Positions 16,343-35,105 of a stretch of 64,000 nucleotides of DNA are shown piece after piece (positions within the stretch are counted from its first letter, which is position 1; each line of letters begins with the position of its first letter). The position numbers and the translations under genes are program-made. The stretch is from a virus, in IMG/VR virus record IMGVR_UViG_3300021963_009201, positions 96,001 to 160,000 of that record; one strand, given 5' to 3'. The notes under the pieces are model-generated. The model was not told where the DNA came from. It saw only the letters and a program-made list of their open reading frames with translations, and did not search any database.

Positions 16343-17176
16343 TCATACCGTAGAGAAACTATTGATAATTTTTACCATCATCTCTCGGGAGTTCATGCCG
16401 TAGGCATTACCTGCCTCAACGCAAAAATGGTCGAGAGTGTTACGGAATGTCGGATCTACTTCTTCGTTAAATCCTTCTCCATTCATTTGCGCTTTAGGGC
16501 TTTCCCATTTTGTTTCCAATATCTTTAAAAGAGAGAGTTTTTCCCACTCCTTAAAGTAGTACCGAACAGCGTCGGGATGGTTTGATTTAGATGCGCCAGC
16601 TGGGATCCCCCGTTGCATACAGTGGATTACCGTATCTTGGAGGTCTAGGTTCCAGCCTGAATTCCAAACCATATTATAAGCCTGCTGGACGCCTTCTGCT
16701 AGACTCCCGCAGGGCTCATAAATTTCGTGTACAGGATTGCAAAGGTTTGAGTTAAAGTATAGGTTTAAAAGTGGCAGCATAAAAACGCGGTCATCCCAAC
16801 CATACAATGGCTCATTCCTGCAATAAACACGAATTAAAACTGGATTATAGTGCTCATCAAACATCACGTAGTAAGTTGTCCAGGGTATAGGGAGATTAAA
16901 CCCCTCTACAGCGGTCCTACTATCTATAAAGTCTTTACGGGCAAACGCTAACTCTACATATTGTACAGAGGGTGGTCTTTCAAAGACTATGATACGTTGA
17001 TTATCGGAAATCCATCTTACAGCAGGAGGAAGAAAACCAAGATCTTGCCTACCGTGGCTGGTGAGACTACGGAATATATCCCCCGCAGATTTTTCTGGAA
17101 GAGGGATTGTACCGGCACTGTGGTATACACCACTTACTGTATCGGTTGATGAGTTAATTTTAAGTTCAATTTTCAT
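16343..17176 (-). CDS. prokaryotic E2-like protein (family D / PRTRC protein B-like)
   Basis: LPPAVRWIS..FERPP..LPIPW..RVYCRNEPL..FMLPLLNLYFNSNLC; putative catalytic Cys present. Confidence 0.7.
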   Translation of the reverse strand: MKIELKINSSTDTVSGVYHSAGTIPLPEKSAGDIFRSLTSHGRQDLGFLPPAVRWISDNQRIIVFERPPSVQYVELAFARKDFIDSRTAVEGFNLPIPWTTYYVMFDEHYNPVLIRVYCRNEPLYGWDDRVFMLPLLNLYFNSNLCNPVHEIYEPCGSLAEGVQQAYNMVWNSGWNLDLQDTVIHCMQRGIPAGASKSNHPDAVRYYFKEWEKLSLLKILETKWESPKAQMNGEGFNEEVDPTFRNTLDHFCVEAGNAYGMNSREMMVKIINSFSTV

Positions 17177-18072
17177 TTTAATAAATCCCAGAAAAACTTA
17201 GAGAGCTCTACATGTCCGGCATCTTTAGTTCTGTCCAATAGTGCCGTATTTTTATCAAAGTAGTTTACAAGATCGCCAAATGTGCAGTCTCCAAATTGAT
17301 GAACGTCAAGTGCTCGATAAGAAAGCCCTAGAACTTCTTCCATGGATAGTTTAGCCCAAGAAGCAAAGAATTCATTTGAGTAAATGTGGCAACCCATTTC
17401 CTTTGGGAAGTATTCGGTAATCATGGTTGTAAGATCGTTATTAAAGGTATCAGTCCAAAACCCATTTATCGCATCAAGGACAAACGCAGAAAAATTATTA
17501 TATTTCTCTGGATCATTAATTGGATGGAAACTGCCCCAGCAGATCGAGGCGTCAGGGTAAATGTTGGTTACTGGCAATGCATAAAGCTGGTCCGAAAAAC
17601 TGTTTAGCGGACTAGGCCTGCAGAAAACCTTTACACTAGGTAAATGATCTTTTTCAAATCCACTGAAAAACCAGACAGTCCATGGAATATTTATATTAAA
17701 AGAGAAAGTTTCGGGGTAAGGTCTTTCGCATTCGCAACCATAGTCTGGATCACAGCTATCCCAATGTTCAAAATCTTCATCTTCTAATTCACCTTGAACA
17801 TCTTGATACTTAATAGTGCAGTTGAGTGGCGGACGCTCAACCGCTATGGTGGACATATCTCGGGAAATCCACCTAGTAACCGGCGGTAAGATGTCTGTAG
17901 AATTTTTGGTGTTTTTAAAAAAGTTCTTTGATACGTTAACCATATTGGAATTTGATTGTTCCATAATCCCGTATCTAAAGTCTACACCAAATTCTGATAT
18001 AGTTATTTCTTGTTCTATTTGTGAATTGGGTGTTTCAAGGTTTGATTCACCTGTATCAAGCGCTTGCGACAT
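17173..18072 (-). CDS. prokaryotic E2-like protein (family D / PRTRC protein B-like)
   Basis: LPPVTRWIS..VERPP..NIPW..LYALPVTNIYPDASICWG..FWTDTFNNDL. Confidence 0.8.
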   Translation of the reverse strand: MSQALDTGESNLETPNSQIEQEITISEFGVDFRYGIMEQSNSNMVNVSKNFFKNTKNSTDILPPVTRWISRDMSTIAVERPPLNCTIKYQDVQGELEDEDFEHWDSCDPDYGCECERPYPETFSFNINIPWTVWFFSGFEKDHLPSVKVFCRPSPLNSFSDQLYALPVTNIYPDASICWGSFHPINDPEKYNNFSAFVLDAINGFWTDTFNNDLTTMITEYFPKEMGCHIYSNEFFASWAKLSMEEVLGLSYRALDVHQFGDCTFGDLVNYFDKNTALLDRTKDAGHVELSKFFWDLLK

Positions 18073-23711: not shown

Positions 23712-24755
23712 TTATTGTATATTCTGATTATCGTAAAAGTTAGAGTTTGCGTTATTCAAAAGGCGTGTAAGTTCAGACAACGAATATTTTATCCATTCTT
23801 TTGGATTATTATTCGGAGTCAAACTAAACCAGCATGATTCCATTGGTGTAGATGTCGAATTGCCGCGATAGTGAACTACGCCTTTTGGAATAACGGCCAT
23901 ATTATTTTGCAGGTGCGTCTTAACTAGACACGACCAACTCATCCAAGCGCTATGTAATAGATCCCTATTACTGTATAGCAAATAGTGTCTGAATTCGTCG
24001 TAGGTAAGACAACCTATATCATACAAGTCTAAAAGATTTTCTGCAACTAAATTCCAGTATAGTTGTTTGGAGCTCCAGTTATCTCTAAAAGACATTGCAG
24101 TATTTGTAAACCTAATCCAACTACCCGAATGCTTTAGTCTGTCTTTTGTTGATAGTATAATTTCTATAGTTTCTTCGCCAAAGATAGACATAAGATCGGC
24201 GTGGATATAGCTTACGGAGCCACTTGCGGAAGATCGAATAGCATCTGTAAGGTTGCCATTCCATGTTTTTGCTTGTGGCCATTTTCTCTCAATTTGTTCA
24301 AAAGTAGAAACATTTTTTTCTACTAAAAACAAACGAGAGTAATCGATAGAAAAGTTTTCTATCAATTCTTGAGGTTCAACGGATAACTCGGGTAAGAGTA
24401 TACAATATCCGGAACTAAGATCTACATCTATTGATTTTTTTTCTTGAAGTGAGATCTGTCTTTTTATGGAGACATTATAGGAAGACTCTTCAATGAAGTC
24501 AATAGGTACGGAAATGCCTAAAAGGTCTAGACCTTTTCGTGTGGGCACCCATATATCTGCCCTTCTTCCCCTTTTACTTCTGGGGTGCAGGTCTTGCTTT
24601 CTTTTTATATATCTATTAGAGAGCAGTTCTATTCTTGAAGGCAGAAATTCGTGTTGAGTAACTAGTTTTGCGCTTCTTAATTCTGTAGAAGTAACTGCTT
24701 TATTTGACGCAATAAACCTAAGGAGTTTTTTTGCGCTAACGGAAATTTTATCCAC
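23712..24755 (-). CDS. winged-helix plus possible SAM-dependent methyltransferase-like protein
   Basis: N-terminal wHTH (W.PT.KG..LL); LFLVEKN..WNGNL..IHADLM Rossmann-like segment. Confidence 0.45.
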   Translation of the reverse strand: MDKISVSAKKLLRFIASNKAVTSTELRSAKLVTQHEFLPSRIELLSNRYIKRKQDLHPRSKRGRRADIWVPTRKGLDLLGISVPIDFIEESSYNVSIKRQISLQEKKSIDVDLSSGYCILLPELSVEPQELIENFSIDYSRLFLVEKNVSTFEQIERKWPQAKTWNGNLTDAIRSSASGSVSYIHADLMSIFGEETIEIILSTKDRLKHSGSWIRFTNTAMSFRDNWSSKQLYWNLVAENLLDLYDIGCLTYDEFRHYLLYSNRDLLHSAWMSWSCLVKTHLQNNMAVIPKGVVHYRGNSTSTPMESCWFSLTPNNNPKEWIKYSLSELTRLLNNANSNFYDNQNIQ

Positions 24756-24830: not shown

Positions 24831-25076
24831 TTAGCCCTTTTCGCCAGCGCGACGATGGAACTCAATGTTGTCACCAGACTGGATGACATAGTTGTCGTCC
24901 AGTTTTTCCTTACCCTTGTAAGCGTTTGCGTCGCCTGGGATGCCCCACATCGACCCAAACTGCTGACGAAGTTCAGAAACGCTCTTACCTACGTGATTAC
25001 CGGGATTGTTGTAAACACCGTAGCGGATCTGTGCTGAGCCACCGCTCTGCGATCCTGGGGATGATGCTTGCTGCAT
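24831..25076 (-). CDS. ubiquitin-like (beta-grasp) small protein Ubl-1
   Basis: GKSVSELR..W.IP..A..L..NYVIQSGDNIEFHRRAGEKG, terminal Gly; abuts the E1 gene. Confidence 0.85.
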   Translation of the reverse strand: MQQASSPGSQSGGSAQIRYGVYNNPGNHVGKSVSELRQQFGSMWGIPGDANAYKGKEKLDDNYVIQSGDNIEFHRRAGEKG

Positions 25077-25859
25077 TTATGCTCCTTGGTATACTAATTC
25101 GTTAACGTTAACGCTTCGGTCAAAACTCTGGGCTAACCCGGCTTCTAAGTCAAAGAAATATTCACAATTAGAAGCCGGATCATTACCTTCAACAATGACC
25201 ATATTAAACCGTGCCAGCAATGCTGCTGTTACGGCCATATTCGTGGCAAGAAGCTGCGTCCCTCCTTCGAGTTCAGCCCTCTCTTGACACGAAAGTTCAC
25301 CAGGGTTACGGTCAGGAGGATTTACGTACTCCTCATGCCAAACCGCAGGGTGATCTACCAGCTCAATACCATCACGCTTAGCGTAGTGGTACGTAGAGCC
25401 AAAGTACTTTTCATCATTTCCGCCCAAAAATACGTCGACATTATTAATTTTAGAGGCCGCATCTATTAGCTGTTTCCTTGCTTTGAAGTTATCAACTACA
25501 GCAAAAATGATATCTTTTTCGACAATTAAGTCAGAAGCAGCTATTTTTCCTGCCGGCTTAGAGCCATCTGCTTCCTTGTCATCATCTTTTGCCCCCTCAA
25601 CTTTATCGACTACCCAATATGGCATAGGGATTATAAACGTTTTGTCAAACTGGGGGACAAGTTCTGAAGCGAGAACTTCAGCTTTATTGCCTACGCCATT
25701 AAAAAACTGACGTTGCTTATTCTTTGCTTCGAAGTTGTCACCATCAACTATGACTAGCGCTGACCCTGGCATTCTCCATTCTAGAGTCATAGCGATAGAC
25801 CTAGAAAGCAGGGAGCCAATACCGCCTGCGCCAACGATAATTACTCTGCGCTCTTCCAT
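25077..25859 (-). CDS. E1-like ThiF-family adenylyltransferase
   Basis: VGAGGIGS, IVDGDNFEAKNKQRQ, NKAEVLA, VVDNFKAR, putative catalytic Cys in ELSCQER. Confidence 0.93.
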   Translation of the reverse strand: MEERRVIIVGAGGIGSLLSRSIAMTLEWRMPGSALVIVDGDNFEAKNKQRQFFNGVGNKAEVLASELVPQFDKTFIIPMPYWVVDKVEGAKDDDKEADGSKPAGKIAASDLIVEKDIIFAVVDNFKARKQLIDAASKINNVDVFLGGNDEKYFGSTYHYAKRDGIELVDHPAVWHEEYVNPPDRNPGELSCQERAELEGGTQLLATNMAVTAALLARFNMVIVEGNDPASNCEYFFDLEAGLAQSFDRSVNVNELVYQGA

Positions 25860-26431
25860 TAAAACTCCTCGTAATTTATGTGAATATAGTCATTTGTTGC
25901 TGCTGACGACAAACTTTGAATGACTAATTCATCTTGGTAATAATCTTCACATACTGTAATACCTGCACTGATTTTAGGGTTCTTTATGTAATGAATTACA
26001 AAATTACGCAAGGGTTTGCAGTATTCAGTGTATTGGTACGAGCATGTAAAGCAGTCATTGGAAAATGAGTCTTGATACACGTTTTCCCAAATATCTTGAG
26101 GGACTTCTTCTGTATCATCCCAGCTCACTGGGTATGAACATGTGCAATCCATCATAGACTCTTCGCAGCAAATCATTAAAGGATCACTTGATGCGTAAAA
26201 GTCTTTAATCTGTTCTATAACAACTGTTGGTGCAGTAGCAACAAAAAGATCCCAGTCTTCTTCAGTAAAACCAACGCCACACGATTCGCATGAGTGTTCG
26301 TTAAATTCGACTAGATCTTTGCAGTTGGGATTCAAACATTCAACTAGTAGAGCACTCTCGTTATGGGAGCTTGATGCTATATCTATATTGCAGTAGGGAC
26401 AATTGGGAAGATCTTCTTCCATTTCACTCAA
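25859..26431 (-). CDS. Cys-rich zinc-finger protein in the Ubl cluster
   Basis: CPYC..ECLNPNC..HSCESC..CC..CTC..CFTC..C. Confidence 0.65.
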   Translation of the reverse strand: MSEMEEDLPNCPYCNIDIASSSHNESALLVECLNPNCKDLVEFNEHSCESCGVGFTEEDWDLFVATAPTVVIEQIKDFYASSDPLMICCEESMMDCTCSYPVSWDDTEEVPQDIWENVYQDSFSNDCFTCSYQYTEYCKPLRNFVIHYIKNPKISAGITVCEDYYQDELVIQSLSSAATNDYIHINYEEF

Positions 26432-26481: not shown

Positions 26482-27753
26482 TCAGCCTTTTCCCAGCGCA
26501 TCACCGACTTTATCTGCTGCGCAGTAAAGTTCGAGTTTATCTTGAGAGTTGTTTTTGGTCCATAAGTATATTGGTTTTTGAACGCTTCGTTCTATGTCGA
26601 TGTCGTTGGAAAACAGCCCCATTGCTTTGCGGTGTGCTACTACATTGGGTACAGTTTCGTTATCGAACATAATATACTGATGACAGGACAGGCATCGACG
26701 CTTATCTTTGTCTACTTTGACAAACTTCACGGAACAAAACGGACAATGTGTATCGTTTTCGCTGATGCAGGCGATAATAATATTATCTTTGATAGGGGGA
26801 AAATCTTCAGGAAGCGTAACTTCTTTAGCTTGAGGTACAGTGCTGTAGCCTGTAGTTGAAGTTCCACCCGCACCGTACCCGTAGGAATAGTCGGTATAAC
26901 CGTATGAGCCAACGCCAGTTTTTCCGTTAGCTGTAGGTGTGTATACTTTCTTGGAAACTTTACCCATCCATACATCAATATCTGGCGAAGGGTCAGATTT
27001 TGGGAATGAATCAAATACCTGCCCTGGGTCAAGAGAAAATACTCCACCAGGAGTTTGTAACTCAATATGGTATTCTGTAGCATTATTGTTAATATTCTTC
27101 CGCCAACCATAGGTTATATGAATACCCGGAAAATCTGCCTGATCTTTATGGTCAGTGCCGGAAGCAAATGCTGGCATGTTTGGGTGGCTGTGAGCGGAGC
27201 CGACTAGGTAGACATGTTCCGGCTTCTCTTTAGCTATAGACTCGTGGTCATAAGCACAGTCAGCCGCCGTGTTTGTTTGGTCGGGAACTAAAACTCCCCA
27301 TCCGTCGCCTTCGTTTTCGAGACCAAAAAAGTTTGGATCATAAGTAAGGAGTACTATCGACTCGGTGCCGTGCTTGTCTTCGACAGCCCTAAAGAAATCG
27401 TCCATTTTTTGAACCATTTCATAAGGAATTCTAGGAAGCGTATACTCTGCGCTAGTAGAAAGAGTTTCCAAGTTAAGTTCTTGTTCTGTTGCTACAGTAA
27501 CAGAACGGGAAATAATAGTGGAGACAACTTTGAAAATTGTCGGCCTTGTACTAGTCTTGGTCGTCTTATTAGTGTCTGTATAGCTATATTCTTCTACCGT
27601 CATTAAGTAGTAGAAGTTATAGCCATGGGCTTCAATATGTTGGCAAATATCATCTACATTTCCAACGAAGCATGGCATTCCATTTGGTAGGTCAAAATAA
27701 GTTAATTCTTCCAGCGGAATTAACTCAAACTTATCTTCTGATACTTCTGTCAT
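26482..27753 (-). CDS. JAB/JAMM metallo-isopeptidase with C-terminal Zn ribbon
   Basis: E...HSH-x7-S-x2-D (GTE...HSHPNMPAFASGTD); CPFC..CLSC. Confidence 0.92.
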   Translation of the reverse strand: MTEVSEDKFELIPLEELTYFDLPNGMPCFVGNVDDICQHIEAHGYNFYYLMTVEEYSYTDTNKTTKTSTRPTIFKVVSTIISRSVTVATEQELNLETLSTSAEYTLPRIPYEMVQKMDDFFRAVEDKHGTESIVLLTYDPNFFGLENEGDGWGVLVPDQTNTAADCAYDHESIAKEKPEHVYLVGSAHSHPNMPAFASGTDHKDQADFPGIHITYGWRKNINNNATEYHIELQTPGGVFSLDPGQVFDSFPKSDPSPDIDVWMGKVSKKVYTPTANGKTGVGSYGYTDYSYGYGAGGTSTTGYSTVPQAKEVTLPEDFPPIKDNIIIACISENDTHCPFCSVKFVKVDKDKRRCLSCHQYIMFDNETVPNVVAHRKAMGLFSNDIDIERSVQKPIYLWTKNNSQDKLELYCAADKVGDALGKG

Positions 27754-27776: not shown

Positions 27777-29279
27777 TTAAGAAAGTACTAGTTTTGCGTA
27801 GCAGCTTTTGCAAACTGGCTGCGAATAGTTATCGTCTAAATATTGAATATTTTCTTTATAAACAAGAGATTTACATTGGCAAATAGAGTATTCTGTTACG
27901 CAGTCTGAGCAAAGTTTAGCTAAAGACATTTCCTGGGTAAAAGGATCAAGGTGTTCAATCAGGGCAAGATCCTCGACTGCTGTAGGGTATGAACAGTTAG
28001 AGCAATGCTCAACTTTGGTACAAGCTACGCACATATCGTTACTGATTAACGATTCTTCATCTTCATGAAAACTATAACATTTCTGACACTGAAACAAAGT
28101 CACACATGAAGAGCAGTGAAAGTTTTCATTGTAAAAAGCCATGTCGGCATAATGCTTATGAGTGTCACATGAAACGCAAATAGCTAATTTTTCTTCTGCG
28201 CACCAAGTGCATGCATAACCGTTTTCAAAGCTTATAACATTTGAAGACCCATAGATTTCTCCGCAAAGTTTGCACGACGTAATGTGATCAGAAAACGGTA
28301 TAAGCGGCTTATGTTCTTCTGCTGTTTTTATCGTTTTGCTTTCAGCACTCCTAAAAGCGCTTTGAATCTTAGTCAATACATCTTTATTTGACGGAGGCTC
28401 AAGATCTTCTCGAATAAACTTTTGATAATTTTTTGGAGTATTTTGATCTCCGTAATATGCGCGGTACTTGCCATCTACCGCCATTCTCAATGTGTAGTAA
28501 GAACCATCTTCACCATCGTAGTGCTTCGTCTGATCATCAATATCTTTTACAATGACGGGAATCCAAAGGCTACCATCTAGGGTCCAATCAGCGCCTTCTT
28601 GGGATGATTTACCTTCCCAAGCCTCAGGGTCCCAGAGGTAATTATATTCGATATTGTTTTCATATTTCTCGGCGTAAAAACGTGGGCCATCTGTTTCTTT
28701 CATGTTGGCGTCATTATATGCTTCAGTGCCGCCAGCGCGCTCAACGAGATTTGCTATTTTTTGACCAAGGTTCAAGTGTGATATAGATGGTTTATTGTGA
28801 TAAAGACATATCCAGCCGACACCATTACCGTTGCCATAGCCTTTGCAATTTAAGTTTGGCAAGTTCACATGAAATAAAACTTGATCAAGACTAGTTATAG
28901 GTGTCGGAGAGTAAAAGTGTCTAGCACCAAAAAATTCATTATCAACAAAATCGCCAATTACAATACGATACGGCATTGCAAGGTCGTAGTGGACGGCTTC
29001 GGTATCCCCTTCGGAACCGCCCCATATGACCCTATATACGCCTGGAGTATGCTGAAATACTACCTGACAATGCCCAAGGGCTTGACGGATCATTAACGTG
29101 CCCGATCCGTCAAGCGGCAATATCCCGGTATCAAAAAATGCTATATCACTTATTGACTTAAAAACAGCATTCAACTCTTTTGTTTCAGTATTTTCTATAT
29201 TACCGACAACAATAGAATTTTTAACTCCCTGATCACTTAATTCAATAAAGGAACCTATTTTTGGGTCAACATATGACAT
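27777..29279 (-). CDS. prokaryotic E2-like domain fused to multiple CxxC zinc fingers
   Basis: LAMPYRIVI..LFHVNLPNLNC..GWICLYH; about eight CxxC pairs in the last 190 aa. Confidence 0.7.
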   Translation of the reverse strand: MSYVDPKIGSFIELSDQGVKNSIVVGNIENTETKELNAVFKSISDIAFFDTGILPLDGSGTLMIRQALGHCQVVFQHTPGVYRVIWGGSEGDTEAVHYDLAMPYRIVIGDFVDNEFFGARHFYSPTPITSLDQVLFHVNLPNLNCKGYGNGNGVGWICLYHNKPSISHLNLGQKIANLVERAGGTEAYNDANMKETDGPRFYAEKYENNIEYNYLWDPEAWEGKSSQEGADWTLDGSLWIPVIVKDIDDQTKHYDGEDGSYYTLRMAVDGKYRAYYGDQNTPKNYQKFIREDLEPPSNKDVLTKIQSAFRSAESKTIKTAEEHKPLIPFSDHITSCKLCGEIYGSSNVISFENGYACTWCAEEKLAICVSCDTHKHYADMAFYNENFHCSSCVTLFQCQKCYSFHEDEESLISNDMCVACTKVEHCSNCSYPTAVEDLALIEHLDPFTQEMSLAKLCSDCVTEYSICQCKSLVYKENIQYLDDNYSQPVCKSCYAKLVLS

Positions 29280-33720: not shown

Positions 33721-33798
33721 GGTAAACCTCAGGTATAAAGAAAATGCTCCCCCCCTTTTCCCTGTTAATATCTGAAAAGAGAGAGAGCTTTTAATGAG

Positions 33799-34188
33799 TG
33801 GAGCTGGGGGGAATCGAACCCCCGTCTTTTGGGCGAAACTTTTTTGCGATACAACTATTCCCGTTTTAGCGACGGGTCGCTAGGGCCGATCGACTCTTGC
33901 GAGTTTCTCGTTTCCACCATCCACGCTTTCATGGCAGTCAAACGGTCTTTCCCGTTAGTCTATCTGTCTTTCCAGATTGTCTTTTTAGTTTCTGTTGAAA
34001 GGCACTAAAATAGCCCCGGGACACTAGTTAGACTAGTGCGCCCTCCTCTTCGAGAAGGGTGGCCATTTCGGCGTCCCAGTCGCAGACATATTCATCGGCG
34101 TTTATTGTTTTGCCCCTTTTAACGTCTCTGAGCAAGACGAGTTGCACTAGAAAGCTTCCTAGACCCAAAATCGAAACCAGTCAGCCCC
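33799..34188 (-). ncRNA. ssrA: tmRNA
   Basis: 5' GGGGCTGA; 3' GGGGGTTCGATTCCCCCCAGCTCCA; G3:U70 alanine identity pair; tag frame 34099-34028 ADEYVCDWDAEMATLLEEEGALV*. Confidence 0.93.
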
Positions 34189-34258
34189 TTTGAATCCAAA
34201 ACCCCAGCTATTTGCTTTAAGCAGGAATAGTTCCGTGGTCTGCAGTTTTTATAGTAAG

Positions 34259-34330
34259 AGCCTCCTCAGAGAATCGAACTCTGATCTTAGCTTTACAAGA
34301 GCCATGTAATAGCCGTTATACTAAAGAGGC
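34259..34330 (-). tRNA. tRNA-Thr(UGU)
   Basis: GCCTCTT acceptor; TGGCT-CTTGTAA-AGCTA; AGTTCGATTCT. Confidence 0.9.
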
Positions 34331-34334
34331 GTAT

Positions 34335-34604
34335 TTATATTTCGGACTTCCTACCGATGTCATGTAAGCCGCCTGGCGCAAAAAACTCTATCTCATCACC
34401 ATCACTAGCAATATAGTCCCAATCGATTTGGATACAGCTTGATGGTAAGTTTGTTACCGGATTTCTTTTAAGGACTTTCATCGGTGAAAAATTCAATGAA
34501 ATATTATCGAAGTATTCTTTATACTTTACAACAAGCTCTCGAATACTAACTCCGTCCCCGCTTTGGAGTTCGATATTCTTATTATTCCATAACATTTTTA
34601 CCAT
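34335..34604 (-). CDS. second ubiquitin-like protein Ubl-2 with di-Gly followed by a 10-aa extension
   Basis: GVSIRELV..DWDYIASDGDEIEFFAPGG|LHDIGRKSEI aligns with Ubl-1 and the ThiS/MoaD C-terminus. Confidence 0.7.
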   Translation of the reverse strand: MVKMLWNNKNIELQSGDGVSIRELVVKYKEYFDNISLNFSPMKVLKRNPVTNLPSSCIQIDWDYIASDGDEIEFFAPGGLHDIGRKSEI

Positions 34605-35105
34605 TTTTTCCTCCTCTGTCTTTTAGAATATTTTCGTATATGGTTTGAATTTTATTTTCAGCTTTTTTAATTTCTTGTTTTTTCTTTTTTGAGCTCTTCA
34701 TTTCTTCGATCTGTCCAATATCTCACGCCTGAATTATGAAATTGCTCATCATGCCACCAAGGCAAATAGCATTGGTAGTCGTCTACCGGGTCTTTTTCTG
34801 CGCATCTACATGATTTCATTCTTACTCCCAGTGTTCCGAATAGAGGTTATCGTTTGACCAGTCAGCAGACGGCGAATAATTTTCATCTTGCTCTTCGTAA
34901 TACTCTTCATAAGAGTAGTTTTTTTCGAAGTAATATTCTTCAATTATGTCCTCATACTCGTTATCGTGAATGTCAATCAATGTTTCCTACCTAAAAATTG
35001 ATTTTATACTTATATAAAAAGAAGCTACAAACAAAGAGTAATAGCCGAATTTGTTACGTAGTGATTGTTTTTTCCACCAAAATTTCAAGAAATCTATATC
35101 TAGCA

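Follow-up and report, generated by a model that had tools for sequence, protein, structure and literature searches.

A second ubiquitin-like protein with a short C-terminal tail, encoded beside an unusual tmRNA in one clade of large phages

The window analysed here is a stretch of 64,000 nucleotides that corresponds to bases 96001-160000 of a viral record of 190,033 bp (IMG/VR IMGVR_UViG_3300021963_009201), which is estimated to be ~90% complete. The record contains a WhiB gene and 11 tRNA/tmRNA genes (ARAGORN), and relatives of the phage come from freshwater-lake metagenomes; on these grounds, it is taken to represent a large phage whose host is most likely a freshwater actinobacterium. The subject of this report is the gene for a small ubiquitin-like protein (Ubl-2), which is preceded by a strong ribosome-binding site (GGAGG, 6-7 nt ahead of the ATG) and followed on the same strand by a tRNA-Thr gene and a tmRNA gene (Table 1). 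The arrangement of Ubl-2 and tRNA-Thr recurs in the related loci L001, L005, and L097, and the neighbourhood as a whole forms a tRNA island in which gene turnover is high. The closest gene of the cluster that encodes a ubiquitin-activating-type enzyme (E1), a JAB peptidase, and a first ubiquitin-like protein (Ubl-1) ends at 29279, ~5 kb away, and Ubl-2 sits 8.5 kb upstream of the E1 gene itself, at a distance similar to that seen in L004, L005, and L006. An earlier reading, made from the DNA letters without database searches (the sequence-only reading), had described this ORF and placed it beside tRNA-Thr and the tmRNA, ~5 kb from the cluster; the ORF is real and conserved, the peptide strings quoted from it are exact, and the coordinates agree. 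Directly upstream of Ubl-2 lies a conserved, cysteine-containing ORF of 50 aa (34667-34819, minus strand), which is also found in L001, L004, L005, and L097 and has a weak match to Pfam GP46 (E 0.03).

Table 1. Features of the window that are discussed in the text (position 1 is the first base of the window).
Feature	Position	Strand	Description
Two tandem paralogues	16343..18072	minus	Putative E2-like (label of the sequence-only reading)
Ubl-1	24831..25076	minus	E1-adjacent Ubl of 81 aa, ends A-G-E-K-G; core modifier of the cluster
E1, ThiF-family adenylating enzyme	25077..25859	minus	Pfam ThiF 1.5e-10; invariant Cys191
Cys-rich 190-aa protein	25859..26431	minus	Between E1 and JAB
JAB/JAMM metallopeptidase	26482..27753	minus	Pfam Prok-JAB 1e-4; candidate Ubl processing/removing enzyme
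500-aa protein, Cys-rich C-terminus	27777..29279	minus	Putative E2-like (label of the sequence-only reading); core cluster member across the phage family
tmRNA	33798..34188	minus	ARAGORN; Rfam RF00023, 98 bits; after tRNA-Thr, downstream of Ubl-2
tRNA-Thr(UGU)	34258..34330	minus	ARAGORN; downstream, 4-nt gap to the Ubl-2 stop codon
Ubl-2	34335..34604	minus	Stand-alone 89-aa ORF, ThiS/MoaD-like beta-grasp; diverged paralogue of the E1-adjacent Ubl
Ubl-2 tail, residues 80-89 (ten)	34338..34367	minus	After Gly79; near part conserved in pattern
Gly78-Gly79 codons of Ubl-2	34368..34373	minus	Candidate cleavage/activation site, from the sequence and alignments

The E1 search of the whole 190-kb genome gave a single match, and the JAB search likewise gave one (25.4 bits, above the cut-off), so that exactly one E1 and one JAB are available that could serve Ubl-2; no PP-loop thiolase (PF01171) was found in the whole phage genome. 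Ser190 and Cys191 of the E1 are invariant in 35 sequences. The E1 family comprises more than 500 protein clusters in metagenomes and 65 loci in viral contigs, many of them from records of 170-270 kb, and tblastn of the window's E1 against 50,697 deposited phage genome records gave no match at E 1e-5; the GenBank phage collection contains no isolate of this group. Models of PRTRC proteins matched the E1 and the JAB only far below threshold. The 500-aa protein, which adjoins the JAB in almost all E1 loci, has no match in Pfam, PHROG, or NCBIfam. Most related phages, Ubl-2-less ones among them, have homologues of the tandem paralogues (22-57% identity) on the downstream side of the cluster. The 190-aa gene between E1 and JAB is confined to the Ubl-2 clade (L006 excepted) and its two nearest outgroups, L063 and L064, with weak matches in L020 and L022; as the JAB protein of most relatives is longer (~560 aa), the 190-aa protein may be the counterpart of a domain that elsewhere forms part of the JAB protein. 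A 347-aa gene (23712-24755, minus strand) separates Ubl-1 from the AAA ATPase gene only in close relatives of the window (L018, L019); in other phages, the ATPase gene comes almost directly after Ubl-1. The papers that were searched contain no description of this phage E1/JAB/Ubl cluster, and the wider cluster is more novel than Ubl-2 itself.

The AlphaFold model of Ubl-2, built on an 8-sequence alignment (pLDDT 83, pTM 0.70), has the order beta-beta-alpha-beta-beta-beta, with strands at residues 2-6, 9-13, 42-47, 54-60, and 71-74 and a helix at residues 21-27; residues 83-89 have a pLDDT below 50 and are predicted to be disordered. The model contains the mixed sheet of four to five strands gripping one helix that defines the beta-grasp superfold, and structure prediction, which the sequence-only reading had proposed as a check, thus returned the anticipated fold. 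Every Foldseek match of the model is a beta-grasp protein, with weak E-values, and in a structural search independent of Foldseek (VIA-align), the best beta-grasp matches span Z 7.2-8.5 and include RnfH (8.5), SAMP1 (7.6), Mth1743 (7.6), MoaD (7.5), and TtuB (7.4), although Z values of 7-8 are common among small folds and these matches speak to fold, not function. Residues 78-83 of Ubl-2 align to the C-terminal ends of the matched chains. The model indicates that Ubl-2 is a real ubiquitin-like (beta-grasp) protein.

Searches with the sequence returned a small family. The Pfam ThiS model (PF02597) covers only the last, C-terminal strand of Ubl-2, at 12.6-14.5 bits (E 0.05-0.21), which is below its gathering cut-off of 22.5 bits. 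A PDB sequence profile search with Ubl-2 gave no match, the PHROGs and NCBIfam libraries had none for either Ubl-2 or Ubl-1, and tblastn of Ubl-2 against the 50,697 deposited phage genome records found nothing; the ESM Atlas feature scores (0.81-0.82) lie under the meaningful level, and its structure rows do no more than confirm a ThiS/RnfH-like fold. Word-based and exhaustive protein searches recovered proteins of 86-90 aa that are 37-90% identical to Ubl-2 (11 distinct homologues over this range), and no fused or longer forms among them. Two real Ubl-2 clusters and one fragment were obtained from the exhaustive search of 1.84 billion protein representatives, and a metagenome scan added one variant, L097; a 647-aa candidate (P0009) proved to be a low-complexity repeat protein and was set aside as spurious. 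One source labels a 90%-identical homologue 'molybdopterin converting factor small subunit'. Ubl-2 is acidic overall, yet carries a conserved basic patch, K-V-L-K-R-N-P. Ubl-2 defines a new beta-grasp family, as yet unnamed, of a known pattern, that of ubiquitin-like proteins with a masked glycine. What sets it apart is its status as a second paralogue encoded by a phage, the partial conservation of its tail, and a tmRNA as constant neighbour.

On comparison with the E1-adjacent protein, the most fitting description of Ubl-2 is that of a diverged Ubl-1 paralogue. Pairwise BLASTP of the two proteins gives E 0.002 over 21 residues only; profile-profile comparison of Ubl-2 with a 13-sequence Ubl-1 profile gives a probability of 88% (E 3e-6), and hhalign with a 44-sequence Ubl-1 profile gives 95.6% (E 1e-8), aligning residues 59-80 of Ubl-2 with residues 58-79 of Ubl-1. 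This alignment places Gly79 of Ubl-2 on Gly78 of Ubl-1, and the homologous stretch amounts to 22 C-terminal columns. As the sequence-only reading had noted, each of these glycines is the fifth residue past an I-E-F motif (residues 72-74 in Ubl-2 and 71-73 in Ubl-1). When an HMM of Ubl-1 was run on 7,277 ORFs of related loci, its best non-self matches were Ubl-2 proteins (E 3e-4 to 0.1), with residues 15-29 as the top-scoring stretch in the Ubl-2 of L004 and L005, a region that covers the G-x-S/T-I/V-x-E-L block quoted in the sequence-only reading; in reverse, the Ubl-2 HMM matched distant E1-adjacent Ubls at E 4e-4. The alignment of the two Ubls that had been drawn by eye is therefore beyond chance, as judged by the hhalign E-value and the reciprocal HMM matches, with weaker support for the block ahead of the helix; outside the C-terminal and pre-helix blocks, the bodies of the two proteins do not align. 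Weak local HMM matches to 90-aa ORFs of L030 and L044 and to a cold-shock-like ORF were discarded, as these sequences are not Ubl-like on reading.

The Ubl-1 family and Ubl-2 have in common the beta-grasp fold, a C-terminal strand and hinge of the form D/N-x-I/L-E-F-x-x-x-G, and the G-x-S/T-I/V-x-E-L block where strand 2 meets the helix. They differ at both ends. Ubl-1 has a disordered N-terminal leader that Ubl-2 lacks, and it carries an invariant G-x-K-G that is usually the true C-terminus, whereas Ubl-2 has no K-G and continues into a tail of 7-11 residues; of the G-x-K-G motif, Ubl-2 keeps the first glycine alone, with the lysine replaced by various residues and the final glycine by Asp or Glu. 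The genomic settings also differ, in that Ubl-1 always adjoins the E1 gene, whereas Ubl-2 occurs in one clade and is not adjacent to it.

At nearly all E1 loci whose sequence extends to the position immediately downstream of E1, that position is occupied by a Ubl-1 homologue. The AlphaFold model of Ubl-1 (pLDDT 83) is a beta-grasp in which strand 5 comprises residues 70-74 and is followed by a flexible 7-residue tail (75-81). An alignment of 44 sequences, among them forms of 149-175 aa from loci whose E1 is only ~30% identical, shows no variation at G20, E72, F73, G78, K80, and G81; the Ubls that accompany these distant E1s have a long N-terminal extension. The G-x-K-G motif is invariant in ~50 distinct Ubl-1 homologues, most of which end at Gly81, and the 1-4 extra residues found in nine distinct homologues (C, SL, NI, LA, I, IFSL) always follow Gly81. 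As read from these C-termini, the pattern is the signature of a putatively reactive terminal Gly81 with occasional short propeptides, and Gly78 is, by the same alignment, a conserved internal hinge. The proposal that Ubl-1 is a pro-form cut at Gly78 is not borne out by these homologues, and the alternative that was offered with it, namely that Ubl-1 uses the glycine of its terminal K-G, is the better option, because the homologues keep G-x-K-G and add residues only beyond Gly81. Since some Ubl-1 orthologues carry 1-4 residues past the terminal glycine, a processing peptidase would already be required in this phage family.

The C-terminus of Ubl-2 was compared across 37 sequences (36 cluster members and L097). 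Gly79 is invariant in all 37, and position 78 is always small, being Gly in 20, Ser in 16, and Ala in one. A di-glycine conserved among homologues, as the sequence-only reading had anticipated, was not seen; 17 of the 37 sequences have S-G or A-G, the second glycine alone is invariant, and the di-glycine is, on this alignment, a trait of the window's phage and not of the family. None of the 37 sequences ends at Gly79, the tails being 7-11 residues long. The near part of the tail follows the pattern hydrophobic-x-D/E-hydrophobic-x-R/K, in which position 80 is hydrophobic in most sequences but Arg in one lineage, position 82 is always Asp or Glu, position 83 is hydrophobic, and position 85 is Arg or Lys in all sequences except P0145. 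The far end varies in both sequence and length, whereas positions 80, 82, 83, and 85 are conserved among homologues that are 37-90% identical; in P0145, which is >90% identical to the window's Ubl-2, the far end is wholly different. This replacement, together with the conserved near positions, suggests that the far end is dispensable and the near end constrained, so the expectation that the tail would vary among homologues holds for the far end but fails at the four near positions. The residue of Ubl-2 that matches Gly81 of Ubl-1 is an invariant acidic one (Asp or Glu), and in the AlphaFold models the stretch from strand beta-5 to Gly79 is 5 residues in Ubl-2, as against 7 in Ubl-1.

Every Ubl-2 locus shares synteny with the window and carries the cluster as well. 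Ubl-2 is absent from 43 other phage records that encode the E1 family, 11 of which are at least 90% complete, although very diverged copies could be missed among them because Ubl-2 evolves fast; the lone match in these records, 19 residues inside a 294-aa frame, was spurious. The records without Ubl-2 keep the E1, Ubl-1, the JAB, the 500-aa protein, the AAA ATPase, and E2-like paralogues of the 16343-18072 type, which implies that the conjugation machinery needs no Ubl-2. In a maximum-likelihood tree of the E1, the carriers of Ubl-2 fall together into one clade (support 99/92), so Ubl-2 was apparently gained once, in that clade. Across the same genome pairs, identity is 53-56% for Ubl-2 as against 81-89% for Ubl-1 and 83-88% for the E1, and this faster divergence, combined with the restricted distribution, suggests a fast-evolving accessory gene and not a core component. 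The idea of two modifiers for different E2s is not needed, as the E2-like paralogues, the JAB, the AAA ATPase, and Ubl-1 are all found throughout the wider family, where Ubl-2 is missing; Ubl-2 as the explanation of the extra E2-like paralogues was dropped, as these occur family-wide without it.

A ubiquitin-like protein with a short tail past its glycine is a known pattern by itself. QbsE/QbsD and CysO/Mec+ are examples in which masked ThiS-like proteins are trimmed by JAMM peptidases. The likeness of Ubl-2 to these proteins, and to the tail-assembly protein I of lambda and T1 with its protein K JAB (PMC1779556), lies in a ThiS-like beta-grasp fold and in a JAB/JAMM peptidase that exposes or recycles the reactive glycine, a role that would be proposed for Ubl-2 as well; the lambda protein is also phage-encoded. 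Their tails, however, consist either of 1-2 residues or of an entire fused domain, compared with 7-11 residues in Ubl-2, their roles are in small-molecule biosynthesis or tail assembly, and their genes adjoin that of the peptidase. Cleavage by a JAB at the last glycine of the phage protein TAPI has been proposed earlier (PMC1779556), and the JAB peptidase BilC pre-processes BilA, which in type II systems has up to nine residues after a conserved glycine (PMC10557695). The type II BilA of BilABCD resembles Ubl-2 in being a beta-grasp Ubl with one conserved glycine and a short tail (PMC10557695), and in belonging to the same genetic system as a JAB, a Cys-bearing E1, and E2-type proteins, the last of which are putative in the phage. 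In contrast to BilA, which belongs to a bacterial defence operon, Ubl-2 is phage-encoded, lies on the same strand as the enzymes but 5-8.5 kb from them, is matched to no named family by sequence searches, and has a partly conserved tail; it is also the second Ubl of its genome, and its cleavage is a proposed step.

Ubl-2 may be a second tag whose end is masked, or it may never be attached to any target. The reading that is tentatively placed first, with somewhat less than even confidence, is that Ubl-2 is a clade-specific, diverged paralogue of Ubl-1 made as a masked pro-form, which would be cut after Gly79 to give a cleavable second modifier. Its body ends in a short, flexible F-A-P-G-G with an invariant last glycine, followed by the tail of 7-11 residues that would mask it; the single JAB of the genome would cut after Gly79, the single Cys-bearing E1 would adenylate the freed glycine, and Ubl-2 would then be handed to an E2-like protein and attached to targets, so that the clade would gain a second, regulated tag alongside Ubl-1. 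Several observations are consistent with this scheme: Gly78-Gly79 coincides in the structural alignments with the end of the C-terminal GG of MoaD, TtuB, and SAMP1, the 22 C-terminal residues are homologous to the Ubl-1 family, Gly79 follows a small residue (G, S, or A) throughout the 37 sequences, the far end of the tail is probably dispensable (7-11 residues in length and replaced in P0145), and one ThiF-type E1 with an invariant cysteine and one JAB are encoded in the same genome, with BilC/BilA and the proposed cleavage of TAPI as precedents by analogy. Against the pro-form reading, Gly79 is homologous to the internal Gly78 of Ubl-1 and not to its reactive terminal Gly81, and as the stretch from beta-5 to Gly79 is two residues shorter than that of Ubl-1, the same E1 pocket may not reach Gly79. 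Conservation of the near tail (80, 82, 83, and 85) down to 37% identity would be unusual for a discarded propeptide, no natural variant is unmasked at Gly79, Ubl-2 diverges much faster than Ubl-1 in the same genome pairs, and 43 related records retain the machinery without it. In a close rival reading, possible but more doubtful, Ubl-2 is never conjugated and is instead a descendant of Ubl-1 that has lost the reactive x-K-G and binds partners non-covalently with its tail intact; its role could, for instance, be that of a pseudo-substrate or a regulator for one of the enzymes (the E1, an E2, or the JAB), or that of an adaptor in the recognition of a partner. The constant Asp or Glu at the position of the reactive Gly81, a near tail under purifying selection and missing from no variant, and an evolution faster and a spread narrower than those of the core modifier all argue for such a binder, and as Gly78 of Ubl-1 is itself invariant but internal, an invariant glycine at this position need not mark a cleavage site. 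The non-conjugated reading sits less well with the small residue and glycine that close the fold ahead of a disordered stretch, which is the classic appearance of a pro-Ubl, or with the freely replaceable far end, and its binding partner is only postulated. To our knowledge, bacterial ubiquitin-like conjugation has so far been described as host anti-phage defence (Bil, CBASS type II), whereas here a family of freshwater phages with genomes of ~200 kb encodes an E1, a JAB, and Ubls of its own together with putative E2-like proteins, and one clade of the family has added a second, end-masked Ubl. A cleavable pro-form would give the phage two separately controlled tags, and a Ubl-2 that is never conjugated would amount to a natural regulator, derived from a Ubl, of the conjugation enzymes that the phage itself encodes; either outcome would help explain how phages use a ubiquitin-like system.

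Other roles for Ubl-2 would lie outside protein conjugation, and the probability that remains after the readings weighed here goes to something else. A sulfur carrier of the ThiS/MoaD type, or a mimic of such a carrier, is a quite improbable reading of Ubl-2, in which the protein would serve host or phage sulfur transfer (cofactor, cysteine, or tRNA thiolation) with its glycine thiocarboxylated after trimming. Ubl-2 shares fold, size, and its best structural matches (Z 7.2-8.5, with MoaD, TtuB, and SAMP1 among the best) with the ThiS/MoaD/SAMP/TtuB group (PF02597), its C-terminal signature G-D-E-I-x-F-F-x-P-G-G is close to that of MoaD, and both the weak Pfam ThiS matches on the C-terminal strand and the 'molybdopterin converting factor' label given by one source to a 90%-identical homologue favour a carrier. 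Every ThiS score (12.6-14.5), however, is under the 22.5-bit cut-off, the GG is neither terminal nor conserved as GG, searches for sulfur-transfer partners in the phage genome found neither a PP-loop thiolase nor a second E1, and the sole E1, with its invariant cysteine and its place beside the JAB and putative E2-like genes, points to protein conjugation. A role with the neighbouring tmRNA and tRNAs instead of the E1 cluster, either as a TGS-like, RNA- or ribosome-associated beta-grasp protein or as a factor for tmRNA-tagged proteins, is also unlikely. The tmRNA encodes an acidic tag of 23 aa, A-D-x4-D-W-D-A-x-M/L-A-T-L-L-x-E-E-G-A-L-V, and tmRNAs with this tag were found only in Ubl-2-bearing loci and their clade. 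The two genes lie within ~130 bp of each other in every Ubl-2 lineage (tmRNA at 33798-34188 in the window, L006:9504-9893, and L001:4034-4424), despite a swap from the order Ubl-2, tRNA-Thr, tmRNA in the window's lineage to tmRNA, tRNA-Met, Ubl-2, tRNA-Val in the diverged L006 lineage; farther out, gene order is conserved. This shared confinement and proximity, along with the basic patch of Ubl-2, would fit a link to the tmRNA, as would the result of the Rfam model on 24 Ubl-2-less records, in which the sole full-length tmRNA has an ordinary tag (A-D-E-N-L-L-V-A-A) and no Ubl-2 nearby. The E1 tree, however, places all carriers in a single clade, so the association counts as one evolutionary event, and its treatment as independent statistics was rejected; the region is also a high-turnover tRNA island, the protein is acidic overall, TGS domains rank under the ThiS/MoaD-type proteins among the structural matches, and Ubl-2 has sequence homology to a conjugation-type Ubl. 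The adjacency is a lead and does not count as evidence for a functional link. It is most improbable that Ubl-2 and the odd tmRNA form a functional pair in which Ubl-2 marks, recognises, or competes with tmRNA-tagged proteins, a pairing that, if true, would tie ribosome rescue to ubiquitin-like tagging in a phage. In a related phage, G041 (L086:1501-1876), a tmRNA with the ordinary tag A-D-E-N-L-L-V-A-A lies beside a Thg1-like gene.
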